Shown here one piece after another: positions 15,578 through 62,225 of a stretch of DNA of 64,000 nucleotides. Under the pieces are notes generated by a model. The model made no database searches and was not told the DNA's origin. It saw only the letters and a program-made list of their open reading frames with translations. How positions within the stretch are numbered: position 1 is the first letter of the stretch; every line of letters starts with the position of its first letter. Source of the stretch: a candidate division WOR-3 bacterium (GTDB lineage: Bacteria; Hydrothermota; Tepidihabitantia; Tepidihabitantales; Tepidihabitantaceae); assembly GCA_965648935.1 (NCBI GenBank), contig CBFGIY010000003.1:484-64483 (forward strand). Direction: 5' to 3'. Position numbers and translations under genes: made by a program.

Positions 15578-15595
15578 TTCGTCCTCCTCTGACAG

Positions 15596-19657: not shown

Positions 19658-19683
19658 GCGCGCTTCGTCCTGCCCGCCGTTCC

Positions 19684-48062: not shown

Positions 48063-51000
48063 CTAGTCGAGCAGGGCCTTGATTTCCCGGTAGATGTTCT
48101 CGGACAAGAACCCGCGCACGTCGATGGCCAGCGACCGGCAGTTGGCCGCGCACGCGCCACAGCCCTTGCACAGCGCCTCGTTGACCACGGCCGCGCGCTT
48201 GCCGAACCGCTCGTTCACGACCTTGACCTCGATGGCGCGATAGGGGCACAGCGCCTCGCACATCCCGCAGGCCGAACAGCGCGACTGGTCCACCTGCGCC
48301 ACCGTCGCCTCGGCTTCGAGCTCGTCGCGCGACAGCACGGTCGCGGCCCGGCCCGCTGCGGCCCGCGCCTGTGCCACCGCCTCGTCGATGAACTTGGGGA
48401 AGTGGCACAGCCCGGCCATGAACACGCCCTCGGTCGCGAAATCGACCGGCCTGAGTTTGGCGTGCGCCTCGAGGAAGAACCCGTCGGCGTTGAGCGGCAC
48501 CTTCAGCATCTTGGCCAGCTCTTCGGAATCCTCCAGCGGCACCACGCCCGACGACAGCGCCAGCAGGTCGGGGCGCAATTCGACCGTCTCGCCGAGCACG
48601 GGGTCAAACACGGTTACCGACAATGTCGATTTGCGATTGTCGATTGTCGACTCCCCGCCTTCGCTTTGGCATTTGACTTTTGGCTTCTGGCTTCTGGCTT
48701 CGTCCTCGATGACGTTGACGTCCGGCTTCCGTTCCGGTGTGTACCGGATGAAGACCACGCCCTGCTCGCGCGCCTTGCGGTAATGTTCCTCGCGCAGGCC
48801 GTAGGTGCGGATGTCGCGGTAGAGCACGTAGACCTCGGCCTCAGGGTTCAGCGCCTTGACTGCAAGCGCGTTCTTCACCGCCTCGGCGCAGCAGACCCGC
48901 GAGCAGTAGGGCCGGTCCGGTTCGCGCGAACCCACGCACTGAATCATCACGACCCGCTGGGTGGCCTTCACCTTCGCCGGCTCGCGCTCGACCAGCTCTT
49001 CCAATTCCTGCTGGGTGACTATCGCCGGACTCCTGCCGTACTCGTACTCGGTCGGCGTGCGATACTTGGCCCCGGTCGCAACCACGACCACGCCGTGCTT
49101 CACGATCTCGCTTCCCGCCGCGCTCTCGACCGTGGTCTGGAAGTTGCCAACGAACCCATCGATCGCCTTGATGCGCGCGCCGGTGATTACCTTGATGCGC
49201 GGCTCGGCCGCGACCTTCGCCTCGAGTTCCTTCAACCGCGCCTGCACGTCGGTGCCGTCAATCGAATGCCATATCCGGCGCGCGGTGCCGCCGAGTTCGC
49301 TCTCGCGCTCGACCAGCGTGACGTCGAACCCTTCGGCCGCTATCGCCAGCGCCGCGGCCATCCCGGCCACGCCGCCGCCGACTACCAGTGCCGACTTGGT
49401 CACCGGCAGTTTCACCTTGGACAGCGGCGCCTGGCGCACCGCGCGGGCGATTGCCATCCGCACGAGGTCCTTGGCCTTTTCGGTCGCGGCTTCGGGCTCT
49501 TTCATATGCACCCAGGAACACTGGTCCCGGATGTTGGCCATCGCGAAGAGCTGCGGATTCAGGCCCGCCTCGGCGCAGGTCGCCTGAAACAGCGGCTCGT
49601 GCGTGCGCGGCGAGCAGGACGCGACCACGACCCGGTTCAGCCGGTGCTCACGGATTCTGTCCTTGATTCGCTCCTGCGTATCCCCGGAGCAGGAGTACAG
49701 GTTCTCCTCGACGTGGACCACGAAGGGCAGCGACTTCGCGTACTCGACCACCGCCGGCACGTTGACGATGCCGCCGATGTTCACACCGCAGTGGCAGATG
49801 AACGCCCCGATGCGCGGCGCGTCACCGCGCACGTCGGTTTCGGCCGGCACCTGTTTCTCGCGCGCGAGCTGGCCGCGCTCCTCGGCCAGTATCCCCTCTG
49901 CGACGGCGGCCGCGCCCGACGCCTCGGTCACGGTCTCAGGGATCGCCATCGGCGACTGGAAACTGCCCGCCACGGCCACGCCCGGCCGGGAAGAGCCCAC
50001 CGGGTCCCAGTCGTCGCCGAGCACGAACCCGAACCGGTCCAGTTCGACATCCAGCCGCCGGCCCAGCTCGACCAGCTCGGGCGGCGGCACCAGCCCGCAG
50101 GAGAGCACGACCATGTCGAACCGCTCGGACCGCGCGCCGTCGTCCCCGGCATAGCGCAGTATCAGGTCGCGCGTTTCCGGGTCCTCGCGCACCTCGGGCA
50201 CGCGCGCGCGCACCAGCCGCACGCCGTACTGGGCCTGGGCCCGGTCCACGTAGCGGTCAAAATCCTTGCCGTACGAGCGCATGTCCATATAGAACACCGA
50301 CGGCTCGACATCGCGGCAGTGCTCGCGCGTGATGACCGCCTCTTTCACCGCGTACATGCAGCACATCGCCGAGCAGTAGCCGCGCTCGACCGAGTCGTCG
50401 CGCGAACCGACGCACTGCAGCCAGGCGATGCGCTTCGGCTCGCGGCCGTCCGACGGCCGCCTGACGTGGCCGCCGTACGGACCGGACGCCGACAGAATCC
50501 GCTCGTACTCGAGCGAAGTCACGACGTTGGGATAACGGCCGTGACCGTACTCCGCTCGCAGGCTCGTCGGCGCGATTCGCGACCCGGCCGCGACCACGAC
50601 CGAGCCGACCTCAATCTCAAACTCCTCGTCCTGCTGGGTGTAGTCAATCGCCCCGGCCTTGCAGTTCTTCTGGCAGGCGCCGCAGCGGTCCTTGGTGAAC
50701 TTCAGGCACGCGGCCCGGTCAATGGTCGGCGCGTTGGGCACGGCCTGCGCGTAGAGCTGGTAAATCGCGCGGCGCTTGCTCAGGCCGCCCTCGAATTCGT
50801 TGGGCAAATCGCGCACCGGGCACTTGGCGATGCAGTCGCCGCAGCCGGTGCACTTGCCCAGGTCCACCGACCGCGCCCGCTTGAGCAGTTTCACCCTGAA
50901 CCGGCCCGGCTCGCCCTCGACCGACAAGACCTCGGTCAGGGTATGCAACTCGATATTGTTGTGCCGGCCTGCGGCCACCAGCTTGGGCGACAGGATGCAC

Positions 51001-51224
51001 ATCGAGCAGTCATTGGTCGGGAAGGTCTTGTCGAGCATCGCCATCACGCCGCCGATGCCCGGCGACTTTTCGACCAGGTAGACCTTGTACCCGGAGTCGG
51101 CGAGGTCGAGCGCGCTCTGCACGCCGCCGATGCCGCCGCCAATGACAAGGACAGCGCCGACCTTGCCGGCCGACGGCTGCCGGTTCACCTCTGCCGGCTC
51201 GATGACCACGGACTCGTCAGCCAT
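48063..51224 (-). CDS. HdrA-like FAD/FeS oxidoreductase, tandem (duplicated) HdrA architecture
   Basis: 1053 aa. N-terminal HdrA FAD domain (VLVIGGGIGGVQSALDLA..DKTFPTNDCSMCILSPKLV), inserted 2x[4Fe-4S] ferredoxin, CCMY cysteine cluster, a second CHCGVNIGG thioredoxin-like segment and second FAD domain (ALVVGGGVAGMAAALAIA), C-terminal ferredoxins. Contains an in-frame repeat insertion (...EDEARSQKPKVKCQSEGGESTIDNRKS...) absent from the paralog at the equivalent site. Confidence 0.85.
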   Translation of the reverse strand: MADESVVIEPAEVNRQPSAGKVGAVLVIGGGIGGVQSALDLADSGYKVYLVEKSPGIGGVMAMLDKTFPTNDCSMCILSPKLVAAGRHNNIELHTLTEVLSVEGEPGRFRVKLLKRARSVDLGKCTGCGDCIAKCPVRDLPNEFEGGLSKRRAIYQLYAQAVPNAPTIDRAACLKFTKDRCGACQKNCKAGAIDYTQQDEEFEIEVGSVVVAAGSRIAPTSLRAEYGHGRYPNVVTSLEYERILSASGPYGGHVRRPSDGREPKRIAWLQCVGSRDDSVERGYCSAMCCMYAVKEAVITREHCRDVEPSVFYMDMRSYGKDFDRYVDRAQAQYGVRLVRARVPEVREDPETRDLILRYAGDDGARSERFDMVVLSCGLVPPPELVELGRRLDVELDRFGFVLGDDWDPVGSSRPGVAVAGSFQSPMAIPETVTEASGAAAVAEGILAEERGQLAREKQVPAETDVRGDAPRIGAFICHCGVNIGGIVNVPAVVEYAKSLPFVVHVEENLYSCSGDTQERIKDRIREHRLNRVVVASCSPRTHEPLFQATCAEAGLNPQLFAMANIRDQCSWVHMKEPEAATEKAKDLVRMAIARAVRQAPLSKVKLPVTKSALVVGGGVAGMAAALAIAAEGFDVTLVERESELGGTARRIWHSIDGTDVQARLKELEAKVAAEPRIKVITGARIKAIDGFVGNFQTTVESAAGSEIVKHGVVVVATGAKYRTPTEYEYGRSPAIVTQQELEELVEREPAKVKATQRVVMIQCVGSREPDRPYCSRVCCAEAVKNALAVKALNPEAEVYVLYRDIRTYGLREEHYRKAREQGVVFIRYTPERKPDVNVIEDEARSQKPKVKCQSEGGESTIDNRKSTLSVTVFDPVLGETVELRPDLLALSSGVVPLEDSEELAKMLKVPLNADGFFLEAHAKLRPVDFATEGVFMAGLCHFPKFIDEAVAQARAAAGRAATVLSRDELEAEATVAQVDQSRCSACGMCEALCPYRAIEVKVVNERFGKRAAVVNEALCKGCGACAANCRSLAIDVRGFLSENIYREIKALLD
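48620..48702. repeat. composite insertion in the tandem hdrA-like gene: CGACAAT-type tandem plus K/P-coding repeat
   Basis: GACAATGTCGATTTGCGATTGTCGATTGTCGAC followed by CGCTTTGGCATTTGACTTTTGGCTTCTGGCTTCTGGCTTCG. Encodes SQKPKVKCQSEGGESTIDNRKSTLS. Confidence 0.6.
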
Positions 51225-51984
51225 TCTGCTTCTCCGCCCGTTCCAGCGCCGCCAGGCCCGGCGGGTAGCAGTACCCGTCTTCCTGGGCCAGCTCGCGGAT
51301 AGCGTTCATAATCTGGTTGATGTTCACGCCCTGCGGACAGCGCGACATGCAGCGGAAATGGGTCGCGCAGGCGTCCTTGAACTCATCGGCCAGCGCCTGC
51401 TCGCGCAAGCCCAGGTTGACCAGCCGGACAAACCGGCGCGGGTCCTTCTTCTCATCCATCAGCGTTTCCGGGCAGACCGCGGTGCACGAGCCGCAGGTGA
51501 AGCACCGTCCGGCCTCGGGCGACCGGGCCAGCACCTCGGCTTTGAACGCGCGGTCCAGTTCGTCCTGAGTGACACTCTCGGGCCGGCCGTCAGCCCGCGC
51601 CTGCCGCACTTCGTCGGCAATCTGCGCCACCGCGTCGGCGACCTGGCCGATGTTCACCCCCTGCGGACAGCGGTGCAGGCAGGTGTAGTGATAGGAGCAG
51701 ATCCAGACAAACTCGGACCGGTAGACTTCCTCCTTCAGTCCCATCAGGGCCATCCGGATGATGCGGCGCGGGTTGTACTTCTCTTCCAGCCGGCGCACCG
51801 GACAGGACGCCGAGCACTGGCCGCAGGACAGGCAGTGCATGAACCCCGAGTCGCCCAGCTTCTCTGCCAGCCGGTACTTGAAATCGAGGTCCAGCTCGTT
51901 GACGAGCAGTTCCTCGCCGGTGTCCTCGTTTTGGCTTTTGGCCTTTGGCTTTTGGCCTTTGGCTTCGTTCGTCAAATCTATCAC
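51217..51984 (-). CDS. HdrC-like iron-sulfur protein (two CxxCxxCxxxCP...CP modules)
   Basis: About 255 aa from a GTG overlapping the upstream stop (GTGA). CLSCGQCSASCP...CLHRCPQG and CFTCGSCTAVCP...CMSRCPQG. N-terminus carries the in-frame repeat insertion (NEAKGQKPKAKSQNED). The upstream 350 codons of the 606-aa ORF-track ORF are antisense-overlap junk. Confidence 0.65.
   Translation of the reverse strand: MIDLTNEAKGQKPKAKSQNEDTGEELLVNELDLDFKYRLAEKLGDSGFMHCLSCGQCSASCPVRRLEEKYNPRRIIRMALMGLKEEVYRSEFVWICSYHYTCLHRCPQGVNIGQVADAVAQIADEVRQARADGRPESVTQDELDRAFKAEVLARSPEAGRCFTCGSCTAVCPETLMDEKKDPRRFVRLVNLGLREQALADEFKDACATHFRCMSRCPQGVNINQIMNAIRELAQEDGYCYPPGLAALERAEKQNG
51927..51967. repeat. K/P-coding repeat, in frame at the N-terminus of the HdrC-like gene
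   Basis: CGTTTTGGCTTTTGGCCTTTGGCTTTTGGCCTTTGGCTTCG. Encodes EAKGQKPKAKSQN. Confidence 0.65.
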
Positions 51985-53102
51985 TCCGCCTCGCCCACGC
52001 TCTTGAACTCCTCCTCGCGGAAAGTGGTCAGGGGCAGTGGCTCGTCCAGGCTGCGGCCCGACACGTAATCGAACTCGGCCTGCGCGTTGCGAGACGCCTT
52101 CTTGAACAGCACGGTCAGGCCGATGCCGACCGGGCAGGACTCCTCGCAGATGCCGCAGGCCACGCACGAGGTCATCATATGGTTCATCCGCGTCAGGTGG
52201 AACAGCAGTGTTTCCGACGGCATCCGGGTCAGGCCCTTGCGCTTGGCGATGCGCACGTGCTCTCCGATGTCGCGTTTGAAAGTATCCGAGTCGAAGAAGC
52301 ACTCGCGGCAGTAGCACACCGGGCAGACCCGCATGCAGTTGTGGCAGTTCAGGCAGTCGGCGAAGTACTCGACGAGCTTCTGCGCGCCCATGAACTTCGC
52401 CTCGGTCTCCCCGATACGCTTCTGCGCCTCGGCCAGCCGCTTCTCGGAGAGACTCTTCAGCGCCGCGGCGCGCGCGGCCGGCTCTTCGCCCTGCTCGAGC
52501 CCGATGCCCTCGGCCAGCGCCTTGCCCTTGTCGGTGGCGGCCTCGACCCACAGCGCTTCGTCGACATTCATCCCGAGCCAGCCGATGGCGATGTCCGACA
52601 CCGGGGGGATGGGAAACTCGCACATCCTGCAGGCCGTGCGCAGGTTCGGGTTGGCGGCCAGCTCGTCCTGACCGCGCGCGTGCCGGTTGTCGAACTCGGC
52701 GTCGGCCCCGCGCACCTCGCGGAACCCGGCCGCCTTGTAGGTGCCGCCGCAGTCCATCCCGATGATGACAAGATTGTCGGCAACGACCTGCCGCAGCTTG
52801 ATGAGCTCGACCAGGGCCCGCGCCTCGCACGGCCGCAGCACCAGCCCCACCTTGCGCTCGAGCACGCCGTCGCAGGCGATGTCGTGCACCACCGAGGCGG
52901 CATTCACCGCCATCGCCGGCAGCAGCGGCATCGCGTCCTCGAGCTTGTCCGGCTCGGTCACCAGCGCCATAGTCGCCGCGCCTGACTTCGAGTACGCCGG
53001 CACCAGCACCGCGCCCAGTCTGCCCTCGCTCAGCCACTGGCCGAGCAGCGCGCGCACTGTCGCCTCGGGATTGCTGTCCCTGACCCTGAGAATGCCCTTC
53101 AT
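51981..53102 (-). CDS. iron-sulfur protein with two 4Fe-4S motifs; N-terminal domain possibly FrhB/FdhB-like
   Basis: 373 aa. CLNCHNCMRVCPVC and CVACGICEESCPVG ferredoxin motifs. The N-terminal about 200 aa are globular and Cys-poor. Family assignment of the N-terminal domain is tentative. Confidence 0.6.
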   Translation of the reverse strand: MKGILRVRDSNPEATVRALLGQWLSEGRLGAVLVPAYSKSGAATMALVTEPDKLEDAMPLLPAMAVNAASVVHDIACDGVLERKVGLVLRPCEARALVELIKLRQVVADNLVIIGMDCGGTYKAAGFREVRGADAEFDNRHARGQDELAANPNLRTACRMCEFPIPPVSDIAIGWLGMNVDEALWVEAATDKGKALAEGIGLEQGEEPAARAAALKSLSEKRLAEAQKRIGETEAKFMGAQKLVEYFADCLNCHNCMRVCPVCYCRECFFDSDTFKRDIGEHVRIAKRKGLTRMPSETLLFHLTRMNHMMTSCVACGICEESCPVGIGLTVLFKKASRNAQAEFDYVSGRSLDEPLPLTTFREEEFKSVGEAE

Positions 53103-53109
53103 CGCCGCC

Positions 53110-53532
53110 TCACACGTCCCACTGCTCGCGGAACGGGGTCGGCCCCTTCGCGCGCAGGTGCTCGGTCATCTCGGTCACCGTGTCGGCGAACTTTCTTCCC
53201 TCGGCCGCGGAAATCCAGCGTAGCCACACCCGGTCCTCATCCAGGCCGAGCGAGCGCATCACCGAGTTGAACAGCACCATCCTGCGCCGCGCCTTGTAGT
53301 TGCCCGACACGTAGTGGCAGTCTCCGGGATGGCAGCCGCCCATGAACACGCCGTCCGCGCCTTCGAGCAATGCCCGGATGATGTACACCGAGTCGACCGC
53401 CCCCGAGCACATCACCCGGATCGGCCGCATGTTCGGCGGGTACTGCATCCGCGAGGTGCCGGCAAGGTCTGCCCCGGCATAGGTGCACCAGTTGCACAGG
53501 AAACCGACAATCTTGGGTTCGAATTCAGGCAT
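53110..53532 (-). CDS. mvhD: methyl-viologen-reducing hydrogenase delta subunit-like protein (MvhD/FlxD)
   Basis: 140 aa. IVGFLCNWCTYAGAD and GGCHPGDCHY motifs diagnostic of MvhD. GGAGG RBS 7 nt upstream. Confidence 0.85.
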   Translation of the reverse strand: MPEFEPKIVGFLCNWCTYAGADLAGTSRMQYPPNMRPIRVMCSGAVDSVYIIRALLEGADGVFMGGCHPGDCHYVSGNYKARRRMVLFNSVMRSLGLDEDRVWLRWISAAEGRKFADTVTEMTEHLRAKGPTPFREQWDV

Positions 53533-53553
53533 CTACAGGCCTCCGATATCCAG

Positions 53554-53577
53554 GTCAAAAGCCAAAAGCCAAAACTC
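53554..53577. repeat. K/P-coding repeat, intergenic copy upstream of mvhD (opposite orientation)
   Basis: + strand GTCAAAAGCCAAAAGCCAAAACTC. In a + frame it would read VKSQKPKLK. Confidence 0.55.
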
Positions 53578-53639
53578 AAATGTCAGAACCGACCGCCCGG
53601 TAAGTTGCACTGTGCCTGTTACACTCTGCACTTTGCTTC

Positions 53640-56600
53640 TCACAGCGCCGCGTCAATCATCGACAGGACGTTGCGCGCCTCGAAGCCCTTGAGCTTTATC
53701 GCCTCGGCCGGGCACGCCGCCGCGCACGCGCCGCAACCCTGGCACAGCACGGCGGTCACCTCGGACTTGCCGGTCGCGGGGTTCACGCGCGCCGCCTCGT
53801 ACTGGCAGACTTCCTCGCACACGCCGCAGCCCACGCACCAGCGCGGGTTGACCTCGGCCACGACCGCGTCGGTCGACAGCTCCTTGTGCGAGAGAATCGA
53901 GCAGGCGCGCGCTGCCGCGGCCTGCGCCTGCGTTACTGTTTCCGGTATGCGCCGCGGGCTGTGCGCCATCCCGGCCATGAACACGCCCCTCGTTGTGAAG
54001 TCCACCGGCCGCAGTTTCATGTGCGCCTCGAGGAAGAAACCATCCTCGTTCAGCGGCACCTTCAGCAACTGCCCCAGCGCGTGGTTGGTCTCACCCGGCA
54101 CCACGCCCGCGGACAGCGCGAGGATGTCGGCGTCGATGCCCAGCCGGCGCTGCAGCACCGGGTCGTACACGGTCACGTGCAGCCTGCCGTCGCGCTGGCT
54201 GACAACCGGCTTGGTTTCGGGGTCGAACCGCACGAACATCACGCCGGCGGCGCGCGCGTCGCGGTACAGCGCTTCCTTGAATCCGTAGGTGCGCATGTCG
54301 CGGTACAGGATGACGACGTTGGCGCGCGGGTTCAGCGCCTTGATGCGCAGCGCGTTCTTGACCGACTCGGTGCAGCACACCCGCGAGCACCACGGGTGCT
54401 CCGGCTCGCGCGAGCCGACACACTGGACCATCACGACATGCTTCGCCTGCTTCACCGCGTCGGGCCGGTCGACAATCATCGTCTCGAGCTCGGTCTGGGT
54501 CATCACCCGCTCGTCCGCGCCGTAGAGATACTCGGTCGGCCGGTACTCGCTCGCCCCGGTCGCCACGACGAACACGCCGTGCTCGAGCTCGGTCTCGCCG
54601 TCGGCGCTGCGCAGACGCGACCGGTAGTTGCCGACATAGCCCGATACTGCCACCAGCTCGGCGCCGGTGAACACCCTGACCTGCGGGTGGGCGCGCACGC
54701 GCTGCTCCAGGCGCACCAGCAGACCGCCAACGTCCTCGCCGCCGTCGGTGTACCTGAGTTGCCTGAGCCGGCCGCCGAGCTCTCTCGACCGTTCGACAAG
54801 GTACACCGCGAAACCCTGGTCCGCGATTGCCAGAGCCGCGGTCATTCCCGCCAGTCCGCCGCCGATGACCAGCGCCTTCTGGGTGACCGTCTGGGGCGAT
54901 GAATCCAGCGCCCGCAACAGCCGCGCGTTCGCCACCGCCATCCGCACCAGCTCGCGGGACTTGGCGGTCGCCTCCTCGGGGTTCTGCATATGCACCCACG
55001 AACACTGGTCGCGGATGTTGGCCATCGTGAACAGGTGCGGGTTCAGCCCGGCCTCGGCCAGCGTCTCCTGGAACAGCGGCTCGTGCGTGCGCGGCGTGCA
55101 CGACGCCACGACCACGCGGTTGAGCCTGTGCTCCTCGATGGCCTGGCGGATCTTCTGCTGGGTGTCCTGCGAACATGTGAACAGGTTGTCGTCGGCCAGC
55201 ACCACGCCGGGCAGGGTGCGCGCGTACTCGACCACCGACGGCACCTTGACCACGCCGCCGATGTTGATGCCGCAGTTGCAGACAAACACGCCGATGCGCG
55301 GTTCCTCGCCCGACACGTCGCGCTGGGGCGGGTACCTCTTGGGCTGGACGAGCGTGTTGCGCGACGCGGCCAGCAGCGAACCGACCGCCGCGGCCACGCC
55401 GGTCGCCTCGGTCACGGTCTCGGGAATGTCCTTGGGCTCGACCAGCGCGCCGCAGGCGTACACCCCGGGACGGCTGGTCAGCACCGGCTCGAACGGGTCG
55501 GTTCGCACGAAGCCCTGCTCGTCGGTCTTGACGCCAATGCGGTTGGCCAGCTCGGCCACGCGCGGGTCGGCCGACAGCGCGGTCGAGACCACGACCATGT
55601 CGTAGGTTTCCTCTTTCAGCTCGCCCGCCTCGTTCTCGTAGGCGATGACGAGGTCCTCGCCGCCCTCGACACGCTTCAGGGAACTGACCTTGCAACGCCG
55701 GTACACCACGCCGTACTCGTCCTGCGCCCGCTGGTAGTACTTCTCGAAGTCCTTGCCGAAGCAGCGCATGTCCATGTAGTACACGTGGCAGTCAAGGTTG
55801 CCGCCGCAGTGCTCGCGCGCGATGACCGCTTCCTTGGTCGCGTACATGCAGCACACCGACGAGCAGTAGTAGTGCTCCTGGTTGCGCGACCCGACGCACT
55901 GTATCCACGCGACTTTTTTCGGCTGCTTGCCGTCCGACGGCCGGCGCACGTGGCCCTCGTAGGGCCCGGTCGCCGAGAGAATCCGCTCGAACTCAAGCGA
56001 CGTCACCACGTTGGCGTAGCGGCCGTACCCGAAGCCGAGGTCTGCGGTCGGCTTGTACTCCTTGAACCCTGCGGAGAGCACGACCGCGCCGACCTCAACC
56101 TCGCTCTCACGCGCGGTCTGCGAATGGTCAATCGCCTTGGCCTCGCACGCCGTGACGCACTGGAAGCATTCCGAGCAGACCCCGCAGTTCAGGCAGCGCT
56201 GGGCCTCGCGCACCGCGGTCTCCTCGTCGAACCCCAGCCCGATTTCCCGGTAACTCTGCCCGCGCTCGGCAACCGGCAGGACCGCCTCGCGCGCTCGCTC
56301 GACGCGGCGAATCTTGGCCCGCGCCGCAGCCGACTCGTCGGCTTTGGCCGCCCTGGGCTTGGGCTCGTCCCGGCCCGCCTTCAGGTCCTCGCCGCGGATG
56401 AACCGGTCGATGGAAATCGCGGCCTCGTGGCCGGCCGCCACCGCCTCGATGACCGATGCCGGGCCGGAGACCATGTCCCCGCCCGCGAAAACGCCCGGGA
56501 CGCTCGTCTGCAGAGTCAGCTTGTCGACCTTGAACGTGCCGCCCGGGCCCCGCTCAAAGCCCTCGAACCCGTCGGCGTCAACGGCCTGGCCGATTGCCAG

Positions 56601-58139
56601 AATCACCGTGTCGGCCGGCACGAAACCCTCGTTGCAGGTGTTGAACTCGGGGTTGAACCGCTTCTGGTCGTCGAACACGCGGGTGCACTCGACCGTGCGC
56701 AGGCCGGTCACCTTGCCGTCCTTGCCCGTGATGCCCTGCGGGCCCCAAGACGGTTGGATGGCGATACCCTCGGCCAGCGCCTCCTCAATCTCGTACTCAA
56801 ACGCCGGCATCTCTTCGCGGCACTCGAGGCAGACCATCGTCACCTTCTCGGCCCCGGCCCGCTTCGCGGTCATCGCCACGTCAACCGCGACGTTGCCGCC
56901 GCCGATGACCACGACTTCCTTGCCCGTCTCAAGCGGCTTGCCCTCGCTTGCGGCGCGCAGGTACTCGATGCCGAGGTGCACGCCCTCAAGCTCCGCGCCC
57001 TCGATCTTCAGGCCGCGGCTCTTCTGCGCCCCGAACCCGAGGAACACCGCCTTGTACCCGTCGGCCTTGAGCCTCTCGACCTCGGCCGCGGACTTCACCG
57101 GCGAGCCCAGCTTCAGCTCGACCCCGGTGTCGGTGATGTCCTTAATCTCGCGGTCGAGAACCTCGCGCGGCAGCCGGTACGCCGGGATGCCCCAGCGCAT
57201 CATCCCGCCTGCCTTGTGCCCGGCCTCAAGCACGGTCACATCGTAACCGAGCAGGCGCAGGTCCAGCGCGCAGGTCAGGCCGGCCGGCCCGGCCCCGACC
57301 ACCGCGACCCTGCCCGACCGCTGCACGGCCTGGGCGTCGAGCCGGATCTTCTCCGCGTCCGGTGTCTTGCGCTCGGCATAGGATGCCGGCCCCTGCGCGA
57401 AAGCGAAGTCGGACGCGAACCGCTTGAGCGTCCGTATCGCCACCGGGCCTTCGTACTCCTTGCGGTTGCACTCGGCTTCGCACGGGTGGTGGCAGACCCG
57501 GCCGCAGATGCCCGGGAACGGCAGCCGGTCGCGCACGAGTTCATAGGCTTCCTTGAACTTGCGCTGGCCGATGAGCGCGACATAGCCCTGCGCGTTCACG
57601 CCCGACGGGCAGGCGAGCCGGCAGGGCGCTTTGGCCTCGTTCTTGTCCACGGCCACCGCATTCGGGATGGCCTGCGGGTAGAGCTTGAAGACCGCGCGGC
57701 GGTCGGCCAGCTTCTGGTTGTAGGTGTCGGGCACGCTCACCGGGCAGACCTTGGTGCAGTCCAGGCACCCGGTGCACTTGTCCAGCAGCACGAACCGGGG
57801 CTTGTGCCTGATGCGCGCGCGGAAGTGTCCCGGCTCGCCCTCAAGCGACAGCAGTTCGGAGTAGTTCAGAAGCTCGATGTTCTGGTGCCGGCCCGTGCCC
57901 ACCAGCTTGGGCGCGAGGATGCACATCGAGCAGTCGTTGGTCGGGAATGTCTTGTCGAGCATCGCCATCACGCCGCCGATGGCGGGCGATTCGTCGAGCA
58001 GGTAGACCTTGTACCCGGCGTCGCCCAGCTCCAGCGCGGCCTGGATTCCGCCGATGCCAGAACCAACCACCAGCACCGCGCCGACCTTACCATCCGCGTT
58101 TCGGGTTTCGGAACTCGGGTTTCGGATTTGGTCGCTCAT
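53640..58139 (-). CDS. HdrL-like giant fusion: HdrA N-terminal module + NfnB/GltD-like NAD(P)H oxidoreductase + complete HdrA
   Basis: 1499 aa. Residues 1-270 are HdrA-like (DKTFPTNDCSMCILAPKLV). Residues 280-720 match glutamate synthase small subunit/NfnB (CRLACPSGVNAQGY...FPGICGRVCHHPCEAEC; VAVVGAGPAGLTCALDL...GGMMRWGIPAYRLP). Then an HdrA cysteine cluster CSSVCCMYATKEA, CNCGINIGG, a second FAD domain, CCTESVKNA and C-terminal ferredoxins. Separated from hdrA by 3 nt. Confidence 0.85.
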   Translation of the reverse strand: MSDQIRNPSSETRNADGKVGAVLVVGSGIGGIQAALELGDAGYKVYLLDESPAIGGVMAMLDKTFPTNDCSMCILAPKLVGTGRHQNIELLNYSELLSLEGEPGHFRARIRHKPRFVLLDKCTGCLDCTKVCPVSVPDTYNQKLADRRAVFKLYPQAIPNAVAVDKNEAKAPCRLACPSGVNAQGYVALIGQRKFKEAYELVRDRLPFPGICGRVCHHPCEAECNRKEYEGPVAIRTLKRFASDFAFAQGPASYAERKTPDAEKIRLDAQAVQRSGRVAVVGAGPAGLTCALDLRLLGYDVTVLEAGHKAGGMMRWGIPAYRLPREVLDREIKDITDTGVELKLGSPVKSAAEVERLKADGYKAVFLGFGAQKSRGLKIEGAELEGVHLGIEYLRAASEGKPLETGKEVVVIGGGNVAVDVAMTAKRAGAEKVTMVCLECREEMPAFEYEIEEALAEGIAIQPSWGPQGITGKDGKVTGLRTVECTRVFDDQKRFNPEFNTCNEGFVPADTVILAIGQAVDADGFEGFERGPGGTFKVDKLTLQTSVPGVFAGGDMVSGPASVIEAVAAGHEAAISIDRFIRGEDLKAGRDEPKPRAAKADESAAARAKIRRVERAREAVLPVAERGQSYREIGLGFDEETAVREAQRCLNCGVCSECFQCVTACEAKAIDHSQTARESEVEVGAVVLSAGFKEYKPTADLGFGYGRYANVVTSLEFERILSATGPYEGHVRRPSDGKQPKKVAWIQCVGSRNQEHYYCSSVCCMYATKEAVIAREHCGGNLDCHVYYMDMRCFGKDFEKYYQRAQDEYGVVYRRCKVSSLKRVEGGEDLVIAYENEAGELKEETYDMVVVSTALSADPRVAELANRIGVKTDEQGFVRTDPFEPVLTSRPGVYACGALVEPKDIPETVTEATGVAAAVGSLLAASRNTLVQPKRYPPQRDVSGEEPRIGVFVCNCGINIGGVVKVPSVVEYARTLPGVVLADDNLFTCSQDTQQKIRQAIEEHRLNRVVVASCTPRTHEPLFQETLAEAGLNPHLFTMANIRDQCSWVHMQNPEEATAKSRELVRMAVANARLLRALDSSPQTVTQKALVIGGGLAGMTAALAIADQGFAVYLVERSRELGGRLRQLRYTDGGEDVGGLLVRLEQRVRAHPQVRVFTGAELVAVSGYVGNYRSRLRSADGETELEHGVFVVATGASEYRPTEYLYGADERVMTQTELETMIVDRPDAVKQAKHVVMVQCVGSREPEHPWCSRVCCTESVKNALRIKALNPRANVVILYRDMRTYGFKEALYRDARAAGVMFVRFDPETKPVVSQRDGRLHVTVYDPVLQRRLGIDADILALSAGVVPGETNHALGQLLKVPLNEDGFFLEAHMKLRPVDFTTRGVFMAGMAHSPRRIPETVTQAQAAAARACSILSHKELSTDAVVAEVNPRWCVGCGVCEEVCQYEAARVNPATGKSEVTAVLCQGCGACAAACPAEAIKLKGFEARNVLSMIDAAL
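58096..58131. repeat. degenerate copy at the hdrL-like N-terminus
   Basis: GCGTTTCGGGTTTCGGAACTCGGGTTTCGGATTTGG. Encodes NPSSETRNADGK. Confidence 0.35.
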
Positions 58140-58142
58140 CGG

Positions 58143-60161
58143 CTAATCTTGCTCGACCATATCGTATATGCTCTTCTTCGTGAAGTTGCGGTGGGTCATC
58201 GCGCCTGATGGGCAGGCCACCGCGCACGCGCCGCAGCCCTCGCACAGCACGGCGTTGACCACCGCCTTGCGCTTCTTCGCATCGACCTTCACCGCCTCGT
58301 ACGCGCAGGTGCGCTCGCAGTAGCCGCACCCGACGCACAGCACTTCGTCAACCTGCGCCGTTGTCGGCTCGTGGAAAAGCTCGGTCGAGCCGAACATCGC
58401 CAGCACCTTGGCCGCGGCCGCCGACGCCTGCGCCACGGTCTCGGGAATGTCTTTCGGTCCCTGGCCCACGCCGGCGAGAAAGAACCCGGCGGTCAGCGTT
58501 TCGACCGGCCGCAGCTTCGGGTGCGCCTCGGACTGGAAACCGTTGGTGTCGAGCTGGATCTTGAGCTTGCGCGCGAGCTCGATACCGGCGGGGTTGGGCA
58601 CGACCGCGCTCGCCAGCACGACCATATCGGCCTCTATCTCGACCTTGCGCCCGGCGAGCGTGTCCGCGGCCCAGACCACAACCTTGTCGCCCTGCCGGAA
58701 AATCTTTGACACCTTGCCGCGCAGGTACTTCACGCCCTCGTCGGTCGCGCGGCGGTAAAACTCCTCGAAGCCCTTGCCCGGGGTGCGCACGTCGATGTAG
58801 CAGACCACCGCCTCGCCGCCGTGCACCCGGTGGGTGTACAACAGCGCGTGCTTGGCCGTGTACATGCAGCAGATCTTCGAGCAGTAGGGCACGCCCACGG
58901 TCGAGTCGCGCGAGCCCGCGCACTGCACGAACACCACCCGCTGCGGCACCTTGCCGTCCGACGGCCGGCGCACCTCGCCCGCGGTCGGACCCGAGGCCGA
59001 GCACAGCCGCTCGAAAGCCATCCCGTCGATGACATCGGGGACGCCCGTGCCGTACGCGCCGAACCGGCTCATATCGATAAGCTCGTAGCCCGTGGCCAGC
59101 ACGATCGCGCCGACCTCTTCCTCGACAAAGCTCTCCTTGTCGTCGTAGCGGATGGCCTTCGACGGGCAAATCTTCGCGCAGACCCCGCACTTGCCGTTCT
59201 GCAGGTAGCGGCAATTCTCGGCGTCGATGACGACCTTGTTCGGCACCGCCTGCGGGAACAGCCGGTAAATCGCCTTGCGCTTGGCCATCCCGCGCTCGAA
59301 CCACGACTCGACCTTGCTCGGGCACTTCTCCATGCACAGGCCGCAGCCGGTGCAGGCGACCGGGTCGACATAGCGCGGCTTCTGGCGGATTTTCACCTTG
59401 AAGTTGCCGACATAGCCCGATACCTCGGCGACTTCCGAATAGGTCAGCAGCTTGATGCGCGGGTGCCGGCCCGACTCCACGGTCTTCGGGGTCAGGATGC
59501 ACTGCGAGCAGTCCAGCGTCGGGAAGGTTTCGGAGAGCTGGGCCATGTGCCCGCCGATGGATGGTTCTTTCTCGACGAGCACGACCTCGTAACCGGCGTT
59601 GGCGATGTCCAGCGCGGCCTGTATCCCGGCGATACCTGCGCCGACCACCATCGCCCGCTTGTTGATGCTGACCTTCACCGGCTCCAGCGGCAGGTCGTTC
59701 TGGGCCTTGGCGATGATGGTGCGGATGATGCCCAGCGCCTTGTCGGTTGCCTTGTCCTTGTCCGGGGTCACCCACGCGCACTGCTCGCGGATGTTGGCAA
59801 TCTCGCACAGGTACGGGTTCAGGCCTGCGCTCGCGCTGGCCTTGCGGAAAGTGTTCTCGTGCAGGTTGGGCGAACAGCAGGCAACGACCACGCGGTCGAG
59901 CTTCTCTTCGACAATCGTGTCCCTGATGAGCGTCTGGCCCGGGTCTGAACAGCAGTAGATGTAGTCTTTGGCCGTGGCGACGCCCGGCTCGCTCCTGAGC
60001 TGCTCGATGACCTCGGGAATCTTCACGGTGCCGGCGATGTTGATGCCGCAGTGGCACACGAACACGCCCACGCGCGGCGACTTCGCCTTGCCGCCGGCCG
60101 GCGTCACCCTGCCCACCTCGTTCGGATTGGACGGCTGGGCTTTGGGCGTTTCCTCAGCCAT
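58143..60161 (-). CDS. hdrA: heterodisulfide reductase subunit A
   Basis: 672 aa. Canonical HdrA order: CHCGINIAG N-terminal domain, FAD-binding MVVGAGIAGIQAALDIA, TFPTLDCSQCIL, inserted ferredoxin, CSKICCMYTAKHA, C-terminal 2x[4Fe-4S]. Confidence 0.9.
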   Translation of the reverse strand: MAEETPKAQPSNPNEVGRVTPAGGKAKSPRVGVFVCHCGINIAGTVKIPEVIEQLRSEPGVATAKDYIYCCSDPGQTLIRDTIVEEKLDRVVVACCSPNLHENTFRKASASAGLNPYLCEIANIREQCAWVTPDKDKATDKALGIIRTIIAKAQNDLPLEPVKVSINKRAMVVGAGIAGIQAALDIANAGYEVVLVEKEPSIGGHMAQLSETFPTLDCSQCILTPKTVESGRHPRIKLLTYSEVAEVSGYVGNFKVKIRQKPRYVDPVACTGCGLCMEKCPSKVESWFERGMAKRKAIYRLFPQAVPNKVVIDAENCRYLQNGKCGVCAKICPSKAIRYDDKESFVEEEVGAIVLATGYELIDMSRFGAYGTGVPDVIDGMAFERLCSASGPTAGEVRRPSDGKVPQRVVFVQCAGSRDSTVGVPYCSKICCMYTAKHALLYTHRVHGGEAVVCYIDVRTPGKGFEEFYRRATDEGVKYLRGKVSKIFRQGDKVVVWAADTLAGRKVEIEADMVVLASAVVPNPAGIELARKLKIQLDTNGFQSEAHPKLRPVETLTAGFFLAGVGQGPKDIPETVAQASAAAAKVLAMFGSTELFHEPTTAQVDEVLCVGCGYCERTCAYEAVKVDAKKRKAVVNAVLCEGCGACAVACPSGAMTHRNFTKKSIYDMVEQD

Positions 60162-60179
60162 CGTCTACCAGCCCGCTCC

Positions 60180-60224
60180 GCAGTTTTGGCATCTGACCTT
60201 TGGCTTTTGGCCTTTGACTTTGCC
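60180..60224. repeat. K/P-coding repeat, intergenic copy between hdrB and hdrA
   Basis: GCAGTTTTGGCATCTGACCTTTGGCTTTTGGCCTTTGACTTTGCC. The minus strand would read MAGKVKGQKPKVRCQNCGAGW as a 21-codon mini-ORF. Confidence 0.55.
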
Positions 60225-60233
60225 CGCCATGCC

Positions 60234-61172
60234 CTAAATAAGCCCTTTCTCCTTCAGGAACTTCTCTGCCCCGGGCCCGTTGTAGTCGAGACCGAGTTGA
60301 GAGACGTCCAGCCCGACTGCCAGCCCGATCAGTTGCGTGAAGTAGAACACGGGCAGACCCGACCCGGCCTCACGCGCCGGCTTGTCCAGGTTGTACTGGC
60401 ACAGCGGGCAGGTCGTGACAATCGCCTCGGCGCCGTAGGCCCGGGCGTTGTCGACAATCTTCTTCGACGCCGCGGCCGCCACCTCGCGCCGGTTCACCAC
60501 GAGGTAACCGCCGCAGCACTCGGCCTTGAAGTCGAACCGCACCGGCTCGGCCCCGAGCGCGCTCATCAGGTCGTCCATCACGACCGGGTTTTCCGGGTCG
60601 TCGAAGCTAAGCACTTCCTTGGGCCGCACCATCAGGCAACCGTAGTACGAAGCGACCTTCAGGCCCGAGAGCGGCTTGGTCACCTTCGCCTTCAGCGCCT
60701 CGAACCCGATGTCGCGCTTGAGCACGTCGAGGTAATGGACCACCTCGACGCGATGCTCGAACGGTTCGTCCACAAACGCGAGCACCCGCTCGCGCAGCGT
60801 CTCGTTGCCCTGAGTGTCGAGCCAGTCCTGCGTGCGCTTGAGCACGTTGTAGCACGCCGCGCACAAGGTCACCAGCTTGCCCGATGTGCGACTTTCCTCG
60901 GCCTGGTCCGTGCCTTCGCTTTGACCTTTGGCTTTTGGCTTTTGGCTTTTGACTTGTTCCGCGATCTGTTGGCTCGCCTTCGCCAGGTTGCGCACCGGCC
61001 CGACCAGCGCCGCGAGGTCGTCGCTCGCGGTGTTGTAGATGGCGCCGCAGCAGTTCCACGACGGCATCTCCTCAAGCGTGAACCCGACCCGCTCGGCCGC
61101 GGCGCGCGCGCAGTCGTCCAGGTTCTTCGCCTTGGTGTAGAGCGTGCAGCCCGGGTAGTAGACGTATTCCAT
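60234..61172 (-). CDS. hdrB: heterodisulfide reductase subunit B (two CCG domains)
   Basis: 312 aa. YYPGC...NCCG and YYGC...CCGG CCG-domain cysteine patterns. In-frame repeat insertion (...VKSQKPKAKGQSEGTDQAEE...) between the two CCG domains. Confidence 0.85.
   Translation of the reverse strand: MEYVYYPGCTLYTKAKNLDDCARAAAERVGFTLEEMPSWNCCGAIYNTASDDLAALVGPVRNLAKASQQIAEQVKSQKPKAKGQSEGTDQAEESRTSGKLVTLCAACYNVLKRTQDWLDTQGNETLRERVLAFVDEPFEHRVEVVHYLDVLKRDIGFEALKAKVTKPLSGLKVASYYGCLMVRPKEVLSFDDPENPVVMDDLMSALGAEPVRFDFKAECCGGYLVVNRREVAAAASKKIVDNARAYGAEAIVTTCPLCQYNLDKPAREAGSGLPVFYFTQLIGLAVGLDVSQLGLDYNGPGAEKFLKEKGLI
60917..60956. repeat. K/P-coding repeat, in frame within hdrB
   Basis: CGCTTTGACCTTTGGCTTTTGGCTTTTGGCTTTTGACTTG. 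Encodes VKSQKPKAKGQSE. Confidence 0.65.
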
Positions 61173-61562
61173 TTAGACGGAGAACTTGCGGAACGCCGCG
61201 ATGAAAGCCTGTTGGGGAATGTCGTCCAAAGACGGGTCGTCGACCGTGTCCGGGTCAACGCGGCTGTCGCGCGTGCGCAGTATCATCGCCCGGCACGCCT
61301 CGGCGATGCGCGCGTAATCGACCGCGCGCGGGCAGCGCGTGCCGCAGACAAGGCACGACGCGCACAGCCAGATGCCCGCGGACGCAAGCAGCTCATCGGC
61401 CCGGCCGAGCTGCAGCAGCCGGATGGCCTTTGACGGCGGCGGGTCCATCGCCTCGCCGATCGGGCAACCCGCGGTACAGCAACCGCACTGGTAGCAGTCA
61501 GATATCGTCTGACCGCTCAGCTCTTCGATTTGCCTGATGACGGCATCTGACTGGGTCGACAT
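61173..61562 (-). CDS. hdrC: heterodisulfide reductase subunit C
   Basis: 129 aa. CYQCGCCTAGCP and CASCLVCGTRCP 4Fe-4S motifs. Stop abuts the hdrB start. Confidence 0.85.
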   Translation of the reverse strand: MSTQSDAVIRQIEELSGQTISDCYQCGCCTAGCPIGEAMDPPPSKAIRLLQLGRADELLASAGIWLCASCLVCGTRCPRAVDYARIAEACRAMILRTRDSRVDPDTVDDPSLDDIPQQAFIAAFRKFSV

Positions 61563-61926
61563 GGGAAGAGAAGATGATAATTCGGCCGCGCCCGGCAGTC
61601 AAGTTGACTCCGGTCGAGGCGACAACACGAGCGGCGTTGTGCAGTGCGCCCGCACAGCCAGCCCCGCTTCGAACCAAGCTCCCTGCCCGACGCTGACGCT
61701 TGGCCTGAAACCGAACCTGAAACGCAGGCTCGCGGCGCGATTTGACGCCGGCTTGGACCCGGTCTTGGGCAGTCGCTTGAGAACCGCGCTCGAAGGCGGC
61801 CTTGGTCCGCTCCTGAACAACCTAAACGCTGTCTGTGTAAACGCTTAGCTGAAACGCGCGGACGCGTCTGGCCTCAAACGGCTTCTCGGACCCGTTTTCG
61901 GCCACAGATTGAGCCTCTGAGCCAAT

Positions 61927-61992
61927 GGGGGAGTCACTCCCTCCACAACATATGGTATGCCGACGCGCGCCGCACCACTATATGTAGTGGTA
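61927..61992. repeat. copy 2 of the conserved about 65-nt motif
   Basis: GGGGGAGTCACTCCCTCCACAACATATGGTATGCC...GCACCACTATATGTAGTGGTAGTCC, followed by the GC hairpin GCGGCGGGC-n11-GCCCGCCGC (62034-62062) and a T9SS-CTD-like remnant. Confidence 0.45.
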
Positions 61993-62225
61993 GTCCAAGC
62001 CCGACCCCTCTCCCTTGATGGGAGAGGTTGCGTGAGGGTGCGAGCATCCAGAAGCGGCGGGCGGCGAGCCCAAGCCCGCCGCCCGCAAAACTGCCAAACC
62101 ACTAGTCCAACAGCAACAGCTTCTTCACCGCCTTGTACTCCCCGGCACGCATCTCGACGAAGTACACGCCGCCGGGCAGGGTCCTGTAGACGCGCAGGCC
62201 TCCACCGGTTTCTCAGGCTGCGTGC

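Follow-up and report, generated by a model that had tools for sequence, protein, structure and literature searches.

The name HdrL was introduced in Desulfobacterium autotrophicum for a fusion of the heterodisulfide reductase (Hdr) subunit HdrA with glutamate synthase, whose gene is followed by mvhD (PMC2702500). In Syntrophobacter fumaroxidans, the genes Sfum_0819-0824 form a set called "HdrABC/HdrL", which comprises HdrABC, an iron-sulfur (FeS) protein resembling the beta subunits of formate dehydrogenase (Fdh) and hydrogenase, MvhD, and HdrL; the set was found in the proteome with sulfate present, and electron confurcation was proposed for it (PMC5947623). Here we analyse an eight-gene cluster on the minus strand of a stretch of 64,000 nucleotides (nt) from a candidate division WOR-3 bacterium (contig CBFGIY010000003.1; "the window" denotes this whole stretch). 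The cluster, at positions 48063-61562, is most likely an operon for a soluble cytoplasmic system of the HdrABC/HdrL type, in which a canonical HdrABC core is combined with two pseudo-heterodimeric HdrA fusions.

Several parts of such a system have been described separately. Anaerobic methanotrophic (ANME) archaea encode an NfnB-like insertion of ~500 amino acids (aa) in the HdrA ferredoxin domain, fused HdrAs, and clusters with FdhB only, and Chadwick et al. read the fused HdrAs, which have complementary halves, as intramolecular heterodimers (PMC9012536). A 2025 survey distinguishes HdrA types I, Ia, II (with two thioredoxin-reductase domains), and III (with GltD inserted), and proposes that the GltD insertion of type III is an entry point for NADH that blocks the ferredoxin site (PMC12054007). 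In Elp-Hdr, HdrABC receives electrons from an arm that oxidises F420H2 and is composed of a homolog of FdhB, with flavin adenine dinucleotide (FAD) and four clusters, and a homolog of MvhD; ElpA, the FdhA homolog of the complex, no longer has a molybdopterin site and shows no Fdh activity (PMC12350162). This donor arm is a solved precedent for MvhD and FdhB working without MvhAG or FdhA. For WOR-3 itself, a survey reports mvhADG together with hdrABC in 34 metagenome-assembled genomes (MAGs) and mentions no other Hdr arrangement (PMC12542636).

The cluster consists of eight intact open reading frames (ORFs), each with a start and a stop codon. In the direction of reading these are hdrC (61173-61562; 129 aa), hdrB (60234-61172; 312 aa), encoding the catalytic CCG-domain subunit, a canonical or type I hdrA (58143-60161; 672 aa), hdrL (53640-58139; 1499 aa), encoding a two-flavin HdrA fusion with an NfnB/GltD-like module, mvhD (53110-53532; 140 aa), encoding a [2Fe-2S] connector protein, the gene of an FdhB/FrhB-like FeS (flavo)protein (51981-53102; 373 aa), the double-HdrC gene hdrC2 (51217-51984; 255 aa), and the gene of a tandem, or type II, HdrA (48063-51224; 1053 aa). 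The G+C content at third codon positions (GC3) is 0.80-0.91 in the eight frames, and the G+C content of the window is ~68%. An earlier note on this DNA, made by a model from the letters alone, had listed the same genes in the same order on one strand, and this holds for every ORF, as do its domain calls when all eight proteins are searched against Pfam, NCBIfam, and PDB sequences.

The spacing of the genes is less uniform than the note had it, with gaps or overlaps of 0-8 nt throughout. From hdrC to the tandem hdrA the seven junctions measure 0, 72, 3, 107, 7, -4, and -8 nt; hdrC2 starts with a GTG that overlaps the upstream stop codon as GTGA, and both wide gaps (hdrB/hdrA, 72 nt; hdrL/mvhD, 107 nt) contain an array of heptamer repeats. 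In the independently annotated WOR-3 genome L076, all eight genes are present and every junction lies between -10 and +4 nt, which indicates that tight coupling is the ancestral state. A single transcript is thus favoured by the tight coupling in relatives, while the gap sizes on which it had partly been based were wrong at two junctions. A promoter-like site, TTGACT-17-TATCAT, lies on the same strand at 61574-61602, 12 nt upstream of the hdrC start codon; it matches the consensus at 10 of 12 positions and is the sole such site in 15.6 kb, but it is suggestive only, since 0.9 such sites would be expected by chance.

The first three genes encode a recognisable HdrABC core. HdrC contains the Pfam domains Fer4_8 and Fer4_17 with two CxxCxxCxxxCP motifs for two [4Fe-4S] clusters, and its gene directly abuts hdrB. 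It matches the NCBIfam HdrC model TIGR03290 below cutoff (E=6.5e-15). Its match to the QmoC model, also below cutoff, covers only the N-terminus (positions 6-94 of 360) and MvhD is encoded by a separate gene, so the locus does not qualify as a Qmo cluster, which would encode a QmoC with a cytochrome-b-like membrane domain and a QmoB fused to an MvhD domain. HdrA aligns end-to-end with HdrA of the solved Mvh-Hdr complex (5odc_A; residues 28-669 against 3-646, E=1.9e-202); the aligned part includes the DCSxC pair, in which the second cysteine corresponds to Cys197 of 5odc. It contains an N-terminal FeS domain, a FAD domain with DCSQC, and inserted and C-terminal ferredoxin domains, and matches the NCBIfam HdrA2 model over positions 1-638.

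HdrB contains a Pfam CCG domain and two CCG motifs for two non-cubane [4Fe-4S] clusters, and the ten cysteines of these motifs (C9, C41, C42, C104, C107, C179, C219, C220, C255, and C258) are invariant in 31 homologs. An AlphaFold2 (AF2) model built from the 31-homolog alignment reached a mean predicted local distance difference test score (pLDDT) of 84.5 and a predicted template-modelling score (pTM) of 0.86, and its best Foldseek matches are HdrB subunits of 5odc, 7bkb, and 8rwn, with template-modelling (TM) scores of 0.83-0.86 overall and of 0.84-0.86 for 5odc and 7bkb. All three core proteins score below the NCBIfam equivalog cutoffs for CoB-CoM heterodisulfide reductase (769 against 1100 for HdrA, 145 against 345 for HdrB, and 55 against 160 for HdrC), and the substrate therefore need not be CoM-S-S-CoB. 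The acceptor might not even be a thiol disulfide, since HdrB finds its best NCBIfam match in SdhE, the CCG subunit of fumarate reductase (E=6e-52), and the CoB-CoM HdrB model TIGR03288 comes after it (E=3e-42), with both matches below cutoff. HdrB could then, like SdhE/TfrB, LutA, GlcF, or GlpC, connect the FeS chain with an acceptor such as fumarate or a compound similar to a quinone, in an NAD(P)H/ferredoxin-linked reductase, and the close relative L075 does encode fumarase and FrdAB-like proteins 7-10 kb upstream of the cluster. We consider this very unlikely: the fold and the ten cysteines match HdrB of true heterodisulfide reductases, the scanned window ORFs include no membrane anchor and no Frd genes, and the upstream flank of L075 is not shared by the window. 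A disulfide as the substrate of HdrB accordingly stays in the reading developed below.

The two HdrA fusions set the cluster apart from the HdrABC core. HdrL and the tandem HdrA share 55% identity over 1016 aligned residues, with one large insertion in HdrL, and their genes contain direct DNA repeats at a spacing of 5484 nt; together with the canonical HdrA, both match NCBIfam HdrA models, and the three HdrA types announced by the earlier note (canonical, HdrL, and tandem) are indeed present. In each fusion, half 1 contains TFPTNDCSMC and the inserted ferredoxin domain and lacks the N-terminal FeS domain, while half 2 contains the CxCG N-terminal and the C-terminal ferredoxin domains and lacks both DCSxC and the inserted ferredoxin domain. 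Each protein therefore has two FAD domains with a complementary distribution of Cys197 and N-terminal domain, and the two look like complementary pseudo-heterodimers. The "duplicated HdrA" of the earlier note is right in that the 1053-aa protein has two HdrA-type flavin domains; these belong to two complementary partial copies and not to two complete ones.

The insertion in HdrL comprises ~470 residues (about 178-651) and separates the two cluster motifs that half 1 has in its inserted ferredoxin domain. It accounts for most of an NfnB/GltD-like NAD(P)H:FAD module (56187-57641, minus strand; residues about 167-651), which the earlier note had rightly recognised between HdrA modules and had placed too far downstream, at residues about 280-720. 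The module contains Pfam Fer4_20 and Pyr_redox_2, and residues 167-686 match the GltD-like NAD(P)-binding model PRK12771 of NCBIfam above cutoff (E=1.3e-162). Its best matches are the NAD(P)H modules of bifurcating enzymes, and PDB matches include 9bov_A (2e-96), 9n5u_A (8e-95), 8oh5_C (9e-83), and NfnB itself (4ylf_B, 3e-65). Both Rossmann (dinucleotide-binding) motifs and the FeS motifs are intact, and the motifs ICGRVCHHPCEAEC and VAVVGAGPAGLTCA...GIPAYRLP quoted in the note are present. HdrL thus unites HdrA domains and a GltD/NfnB module in one protein with mvhD as the next gene, as described for HdrL-type proteins, and its gene has no in-frame TGA.

After the second Rossmann strand, at residues about 415-430 (56850-56900), the YRR motif of NfnB/GltD is replaced by CLE. 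In an alignment of 49 homologs, CLE is found in HdrL from WOR-3, Chloroflexia, and Desulfobacterium-like genomes, while YRR is kept in most sequences from Thermoplasmatota, Latescibacterota, and Planctomycetota. In related flavoproteins, an arginine pair at the YRR position binds the 2'-phosphate of NADPH. By analogy, the HdrL of the window may prefer NADH over NADPH, and the CLE/YRR split may mark an NADH/NADPH switch among HdrL homologs.

The remaining three proteins match the earlier note's description of MvhD, an FrhB-like FeS protein, and an extra HdrC-like protein. MvhD is recognised by Pfam FlpD (E=8.7e-53) and NCBIfam VhuD (E=5.8e-40). The 373-aa protein contains Pfam FrhB_FdhB_C and Fer4 domains, has more than 1000 homologs that are usually named formate dehydrogenase subunit beta, and matches the FdhB subunits of solved Hdr complexes (9t1s_M, 1.9e-28; 8rvu_E of Elp-Hdr, 5.4e-26; 7bkb_E, 2.1e-22). 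The product of hdrC2 consists of two HdrC-like units, both of which match TIGR03290 (NCBIfam, E=1e-33), and its gene is not accompanied by an adjacent second hdrB. In each unit the second cluster motif reads C-x2-H-x2-C-x3-C-P-Q-G, one cysteine fewer than CxxCxxCxxxC, and the histidine is conserved among the bacterial and archaeal homologs listed in the alignment; the cluster bound there may be His-ligated or a [3Fe-4S] cluster.

To place the cluster among its relatives, one genome per species was scanned for HdrL, and each ORF of 74 loci was classified against the eight window proteins. The closest HdrL loci come from candidate division WOR-3 MAGs, with identities up to 92%. The same eight genes in the same order are found in 17 WOR-3 or unclassified bacterial loci (L002-L006, L008-L011, L014, L018, L028, L030, L035, L042, L053, and L072), and collinear contig fragments in seven more (L001, L007, L012, L013, L019, L068, and L073). 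The order also recurs in four loci of Thermoplasmatota archaea (L027, L048, L054, and L057; fragments in L022, L043, and L052), where identities to the window proteins are 25-29% for HdrB, 63-72% for MvhD, and 47-58% for HdrA, HdrL, and the tandem HdrA. Since the eight-gene order recurs in at least 17 other genomes, the arrangement is not a product of chance.

Smaller sets occur as well, and they raise the possibility that the operon is only a co-transcribed set of two or three separate enzymes: an (HdrABC)2 core that docks donors encoded elsewhere, an NAD(P)H unit of HdrL, MvhD, and the FdhB-like protein, and a double-HdrC/tandem-HdrA unit with partners of its own. Three Chloroflexia loci (L021, L025, and L026) have HdrCBA-HdrL-MvhD-FdhB-like and lack the last two genes, and L047 has the same set without a separate HdrA. 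HdrCB-HdrL-MvhD sets are found in Planctomycetota, Myxococcota, Binatia, and one Desulfarculaceae MAG, with HdrA missing in L034, L036, L038, L039, L044, and L045, and mvhD adjoins hdrL in most HdrL loci that extend past the hdrL 3' end. Another WOR-3 group and Bacillota encode HdrC2-like-HdrB-tandem HdrA-MvhD (L055 and L058-L065, without HdrL). The fused HdrAs, in addition, look like self-contained pseudo-dimers. Against a division into separate enzymes, the eight-gene order is strict across two domains of life at 25-70% protein identity, start and stop codons overlap in relatives, and a single HdrB, a single MvhD, and a single FdhB-like protein are shared among three flavoprotein units. We therefore regard separate enzymes as possible, if rather unlikely. 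Because sub-modules stand alone in other lineages, one operon need not mean one complex, and of the single transcript and complex that the earlier note had read from the layout it is the eight-gene operon that is supported.

To look for partner genes, we ran Pfam on about 45 of the window's ORFs with GC3 support and searched the window by tblastn with Flx, MvhA/G, and Acs proteins of relatives. The scanned ORFs include no gene for a hydrogenase, FdhA, Flx, MetF/V, DsrC/TusA, or Qmo, in agreement with the earlier note, which had MvhD standing without MvhAG or Fdh nearby. In the tblastn search of the window, Flx-like (from L011), MvhA/G, and Acs proteins matched mvhD only, apart from a weak match to the FdhB-like gene (25% identity). 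No scanned ORF matches the MTHFR family (metF/metV), which sets the locus apart from HdrABC-MvhD-MetFV; the window has no PyrK-like gene (NAD_binding_1/DHODB_Fe-S_bind) that could serve as the [2Fe-2S]- and FAD-containing NfnA partner that NfnAB would require; and hdrABC in the window is not adjoined, unlike in FlxABCD-HdrABC, by FlxA, which is PyrK-like and FAD/NAD-binding, or by the FeS proteins FlxB/FlxC.

In the relatives the picture is more varied. Nine WOR-3 loci have an MvhD paralog beside an FlxC-like FeS protein directly upstream or downstream of the cluster, and eight or nine of these, where long enough, also have a FlxB-like Fer4_22 protein and a FlxA-like FAD/NAD protein. The earlier note had proposed a survey of the neighbourhood for dsrC/tusA, metF/metV, qmo, or flx, and had allowed that its reading would fall if the operon proved to be a known FlxABCD arrangement; Flx-like genes and the MvhD paralog do adjoin the cluster in those nine related WOR-3 loci, and none of the surveyed genes is among the scanned ORFs of the window. 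Clustering of the flanking ORFs of 29 related loci recovered no recurrent thiol/disulfide carrier; only the Flx-like genes (8-9 loci) and an Mvh-type hydrogenase small subunit (five loci) recur, and the rest are lineage-specific housekeeping genes.

The small-subunit gene lies near the cluster in L006, L012, L035, L054, and L057, and a large-subunit gene was seen in L054 and L057, the only two checked for it. These genes favour a different donor, namely H2, formate, or a deazaflavin, for which MvhD and the FdhB-like protein would be adaptors to MvhAG, FdhA, or an F420-like cofactor encoded elsewhere. Such a donor would fit the generic WOR-3 proposal of mvhADG-hdrABC, based on the 34 MAGs mentioned above (PMC12542636), and the closest solved relatives of the FdhB-like protein oxidise F420H2 or carry electrons from FdhA. 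Yet the ORFs scanned in the 64-kb window include no hydrogenase or FdhA gene, such genes are missing within 10 kb in most related loci, and HdrL has an intact NfnB-like module, which is retained universally. On balance we judge these donors unlikely, and we take NAD(P)H as the donor in what follows.

The flanks of the two Thermoplasmata loci deserve separate mention. In L054 (21583-26494) and L057 (21701-26257), the region after the eight genes contains another mvhD, a gene resembling that of acetyl-CoA synthetase, and a divergent pair of [NiFe] hydrogenase large- and small-subunit genes, with a maturation protease-like ORF in L057. Taken with the conserved gene order, these sequences suggest that the module has been transferred between domains and is attached to different donor modules.

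The component list is that of the HdrABC/HdrL system: HdrA, HdrB, HdrC, the FdhB-like protein, MvhD, and HdrL are all present, with no MvhA or FdhA in the window, and two genes are additional. The S. fumaroxidans system has the same six components, likewise without MvhA, and an NAD(P)H-linked bifurcation or confurcation is proposed for both. As judged from the published description, the window differs in its gene order and in adding the double HdrC and the 1053-aa tandem HdrA; a DsrC link is proposed for S. fumaroxidans, whereas the host here belongs to WOR-3 and the window has no sulfate-reduction genes, so this link is unsupported for the window. HdrL of D. autotrophicum HRM2 is likewise a large fusion of HdrA with the glutamate synthase small subunit, followed by mvhD (PMC2702500), and the Desulfobacterium-like locus L049 shares 48% identity and the CLE motif with the HdrL of the window. 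The D. autotrophicum HdrLs, in contrast, are partly selenoproteins and mostly form HdrL-MvhD pairs, while the HdrL of the window has no TGA and belongs to an eight-gene set.

The ANME proteins HdrA9-11 (type III) and HdrA3/4 (type II) resemble the window proteins in the site of the NfnB insertion, the complementary fused halves, and the occurrence of FdhB-only clusters. They differ in the order of the halves, the half without the N-terminal domain coming first in the window, and in that HdrL of the window joins types II and III; the host, too, is a bacterium without methane metabolism, with three HdrA types in one operon. With Mvh-Hdr, Fdh-Hdr-Fmd, and Elp-Hdr (5odc, 7bkb, and 8rvu), the window shares the HdrABC core, a homologous MvhD, and an FdhB-like protein similar to FdhB/ElpB, but it has no genes for MvhAG, FdhA/ElpA, or Fmd and no CoM/CoB context, and those complexes lack HdrL, HdrC2, and the tandem HdrA. 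For NfnAB (4ylf and 5jca), homology with the HdrL insertion extends across all of NfnB and takes in its two FeS sites and its FAD and NAD(P)H sites; unlike NfnAB, the window has no NfnA, the module is internal to an HdrA fusion, and YRR is replaced by CLE. FlxABCD-HdrABC of Desulfovibrio vulgaris, as reportedly described by Ramos et al. in 2015, is an NADH-linked Hdr system with an MvhD-like subunit. The window differs from it in having no FlxA/B/C genes and a nucleotide module embedded in HdrL.

The cluster is therefore a conserved extension of the described HdrABC/HdrL type. The earlier note, which knew of no cluster with this architecture, overstated its novelty: the six components, the NfnB insertion, and the fused HdrAs had already been described, while no description was found of the double-HdrC/tandem-HdrA pair or of an operon with three HdrA types. 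Our literature search found no description of an eight-gene set with HdrA of types I, II, and II+III and a double HdrC.

From these observations we infer, with moderate confidence, that the HdrABC/HdrL system carries out NAD(P)H-linked flavin-based bifurcation or confurcation between ferredoxin and a disulfide. The subunits are homologous to subunits of solved electron-bifurcating Hdr complexes, and the NfnB-like module keeps its dinucleotide and FeS motifs and finds its best matches among the NAD(P)H modules of bifurcating enzymes. The module is inserted in HdrL at the position of the ANME HdrA-NfnB insertion, the proposed entry of NADH (PMC9012536, PMC12054007), and in HdrL and the tandem HdrA the N-terminal domain and Cys197 are divided between the halves as in the fused HdrAs already described. 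The reading is further favoured by the collinearity of the eight genes in at least 17 WOR-3 genomes and in Thermoplasmatota, with tight junctions in L076, by the detection of the six-component set as protein in S. fumaroxidans (PMC5947623), and by Elp-Hdr, in which an arm of MvhD and FdhB type without a catalytic partner is a proven donor arm (PMC12350162). The earlier note's proposal of an NAD(P)H-linked bifurcating module is thus the most reasonable inference from domain content; we also agree with it that the second substrate cannot be read from the window, whose scanned ORFs include no candidate thiol/disulfide carrier.

In such a system, NAD(P)H, probably NADH in this lineage, would give a hydride to the FAD of the NfnB/GltD module of HdrL, and electrons would pass through the two [4Fe-4S] clusters of the module into the FeS/FAD network of HdrA type. 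MvhD, with its [2Fe-2S] cluster, and the FdhB-like protein would form an arm that connects modules or donates electrons, in the manner of the Mvh-, Fdh-, and Elp-Hdr complexes. An HdrA-type FAD would split or merge electron pairs, one branch passing via HdrC to HdrB, at whose two non-cubane clusters a disulfide would be reduced, and the other to low-potential ferredoxin; the direction might also be reversed, giving confurcation. The double HdrC and the tandem HdrA would form a second flavin/FeS module wired to the same system.

Several points weigh against this mechanism. The stoichiometry is odd: there are five flavin domains of HdrA type, but HdrB, MvhD, and the FdhB-like protein are each encoded once, and the sub-modules HdrCB-HdrL-MvhD (Planctomycetota, Myxococcota, and Binatia) and HdrC2-HdrB-tandem HdrA-MvhD (other WOR-3 and Bacillota) occur alone. 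HdrB and HdrC fall below the CoB-CoM cutoffs of NCBIfam, and the window ORFs scanned include no DsrC, TusA, or other candidate for the disulfide. The putative preference for NADH is drawn by analogy from the change of YRR to CLE, and three subunits (HdrB, HdrC2, and the tandem HdrA) have lineage-specific repeat insertions, which are described below. At the other extreme, all eight proteins might form one asymmetric super-complex with six or seven flavins, in which the HdrA fusions replace the symmetric HdrA dimer and the NfnB-type bifurcating flavin is wired through low-potential clusters to the HdrA-type bifurcating flavins, the module having moved en bloc between WOR-3 and Thermoplasmatota. 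We consider this a speculative and decidedly doubtful proposal; if true, it would couple two bifurcation steps between NADH, ferredoxin, and a disulfide.

The repeats that widen two junctions belong to a family of seven arrays in the window, each with four to five copies of a GCCAAAA-like heptamer (19680-19711, 20481-20517, 48665-48701, 51929-51965, 53556-53580, 60184-60222, and 60920-60955), with 18 pattern matches where 0.01 would be expected. The unit contains no stop codon in any of its six frames. Four arrays lie in frame, in HdrB, in the tandem HdrA, at the N-terminus of the double HdrC, and apparently in an ABC transporter, and encode K/S/Q/P/A-rich peptides; those at 60184-60222 and, in the opposite orientation, at 53556-53580 lie in the hdrB/hdrA and hdrL/mvhD gaps, and the position of the latter is also occupied in the close relative L001.

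In HdrB, an in-frame insertion of 27 aa with a (GCCAAAA)n array (QIAEQVKSQKPKAKGQSEGTDQAEESR; 60888-60968, minus strand) lies inside the first CCG domain. It is absent from 21 relatives and from the 93-94% identical sequences P0123-P0126, present in P0121 (96% identity), and represented by a 35-aa variant in P0122 (89% identity). Its region holds the sole stretch of the AF2 model with pLDDT below 50 (residues 88-95), and it is modelled as a helix extension followed by a disordered loop. The tandem HdrA has an in-frame insertion of ~25 aa (RSQKPKVKCQSEGGESTIDNRKST; 48621-48695, minus strand) that consists of two adjacent arrays (48665-48701 and 48624-48650) and is absent from 22 relatives; both insertions are polymorphic among relatives of 86-96% identity. 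The N-terminal ~22 residues of HdrC2 are encoded by the array at 51929-51965: all in-frame start codons of hdrC2 lie upstream of the array, and the proteins of relatives begin a few residues before ELLVNELD.

These insertions and the two spacers could mean that the cluster is decaying and has been inactivated or uncoupled, as the HdrB insertion falls within the first CCG domain, which Pfam no longer detects, and two junctions that are tight in relatives have widened to 72 and 107 nt. Decay is nevertheless highly improbable given the intact frames and conserved cysteines: the eight ORFs have high GC3, each coding insertion is in frame, and the cofactor cysteines are kept. The HdrB insert is, moreover, modelled on an otherwise confident fold, and it or its variant persists in relatives of 96% and 89% identity.

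Other arrays and an associated gene were observed in and around the cluster. A (CCGAAAC)n array at 58098-58129 is translated in the N-terminus of HdrL (IRNPSSETRNA) and is absent from the close relative L001, and the array at 48624-48650, beside the GCCAAAA-type array in the tandem-HdrA insertion, has the unit (ATCGACA)n. In close relatives, a 23S_rRNA_IVP-family gene for a four-helix-bundle protein of ~134 aa separates hdrA from hdrL or hdrC2 from the tandem hdrA (L001, 1597-2041; L035, 18951-19387; L068, 2441-2878; L079, 12989-13393); it is absent at 58140-58142 of the window. In L001, L035, and L068, a (GCCAAAA)n array forms the 5' end of this gene and an inverted array follows its stop codon, so that it looks like a small cassette with heptamer-array ends, and further copies in L004 and L005 have different heptamers. 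A metagenome scan for (GCCAAAA)3 found it in at least 120 unrelated contigs with GC contents from 25 to 67% and no 23S_rRNA_IVP gene near the array among them, and the bare heptamer is thus a widespread simple repeat that is not generally tied to such genes. Two further interpretations were rejected. The arrays do not behave as structured RNA or hairpins of the repetitive extragenic palindrome (REP) kind, as seven folds gave z-scores of -0.7 to +0.7. Nor are they classical miniature inverted-repeat transposable elements (MITEs): compared with an insert-free relative, the HdrB insertion replaces 6 nt with 87 nt, without a target-site duplication or terminal inverted repeat.

In the 1.5 kb that precede hdrC (61563-63077) there is no convincing gene and GC3 is low, and this segment differs from the 96%-identical L075 (6353-9610), in which the end of a divergent 1026-aa gene lies 178 nt from hdrC. 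The two genomes therefore lose synteny exactly at the 5' end of the operon. We considered the flank of L075, in which the 1026-aa gene is followed by FrdAB-like and fumarase genes, as a proxy for the region upstream of the window and rejected it; as it is not syntenic, it is uninformative on this genome. The other window ORFs, as classified by Pfam, encode secreted peptidases, Kelch and type IX secretion system (T9SS) proteins, ABC transporters, phosphoenolpyruvate carboxykinase (PEPCK), pyruvate phosphate dikinase, polyamine enzymes, and a HEPN protein. At 11898-15595, two long ORFs of about 888 and 501 codons on the minus strand have no Pfam match, a G+C content of 0.60-0.65, and a GC3 below that of the rest of the window, and this segment may be foreign or fast-evolving DNA. 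A 126-nt unit repeated about 2.8 times at 33992-34394, within the gene of a 668-aa TPR protein, was rejected as a separate element, as its units are ordinary TPR repeats.

Hdr-type clusters are among the commonest unexplained redox modules of uncultured anaerobes that are neither methanogenic nor sulfate-reducing. The parts of this locus had already been catalogued, so the gain is incremental. It is nonetheless a clean, conserved, and compact example, found in WOR-3 and Thermoplasmatota, of three HdrA architectures together with an Elp-like arm of MvhD and FdhB, and it is well suited to expression, to cryo-electron microscopy, and to assays of NADH against NADPH.

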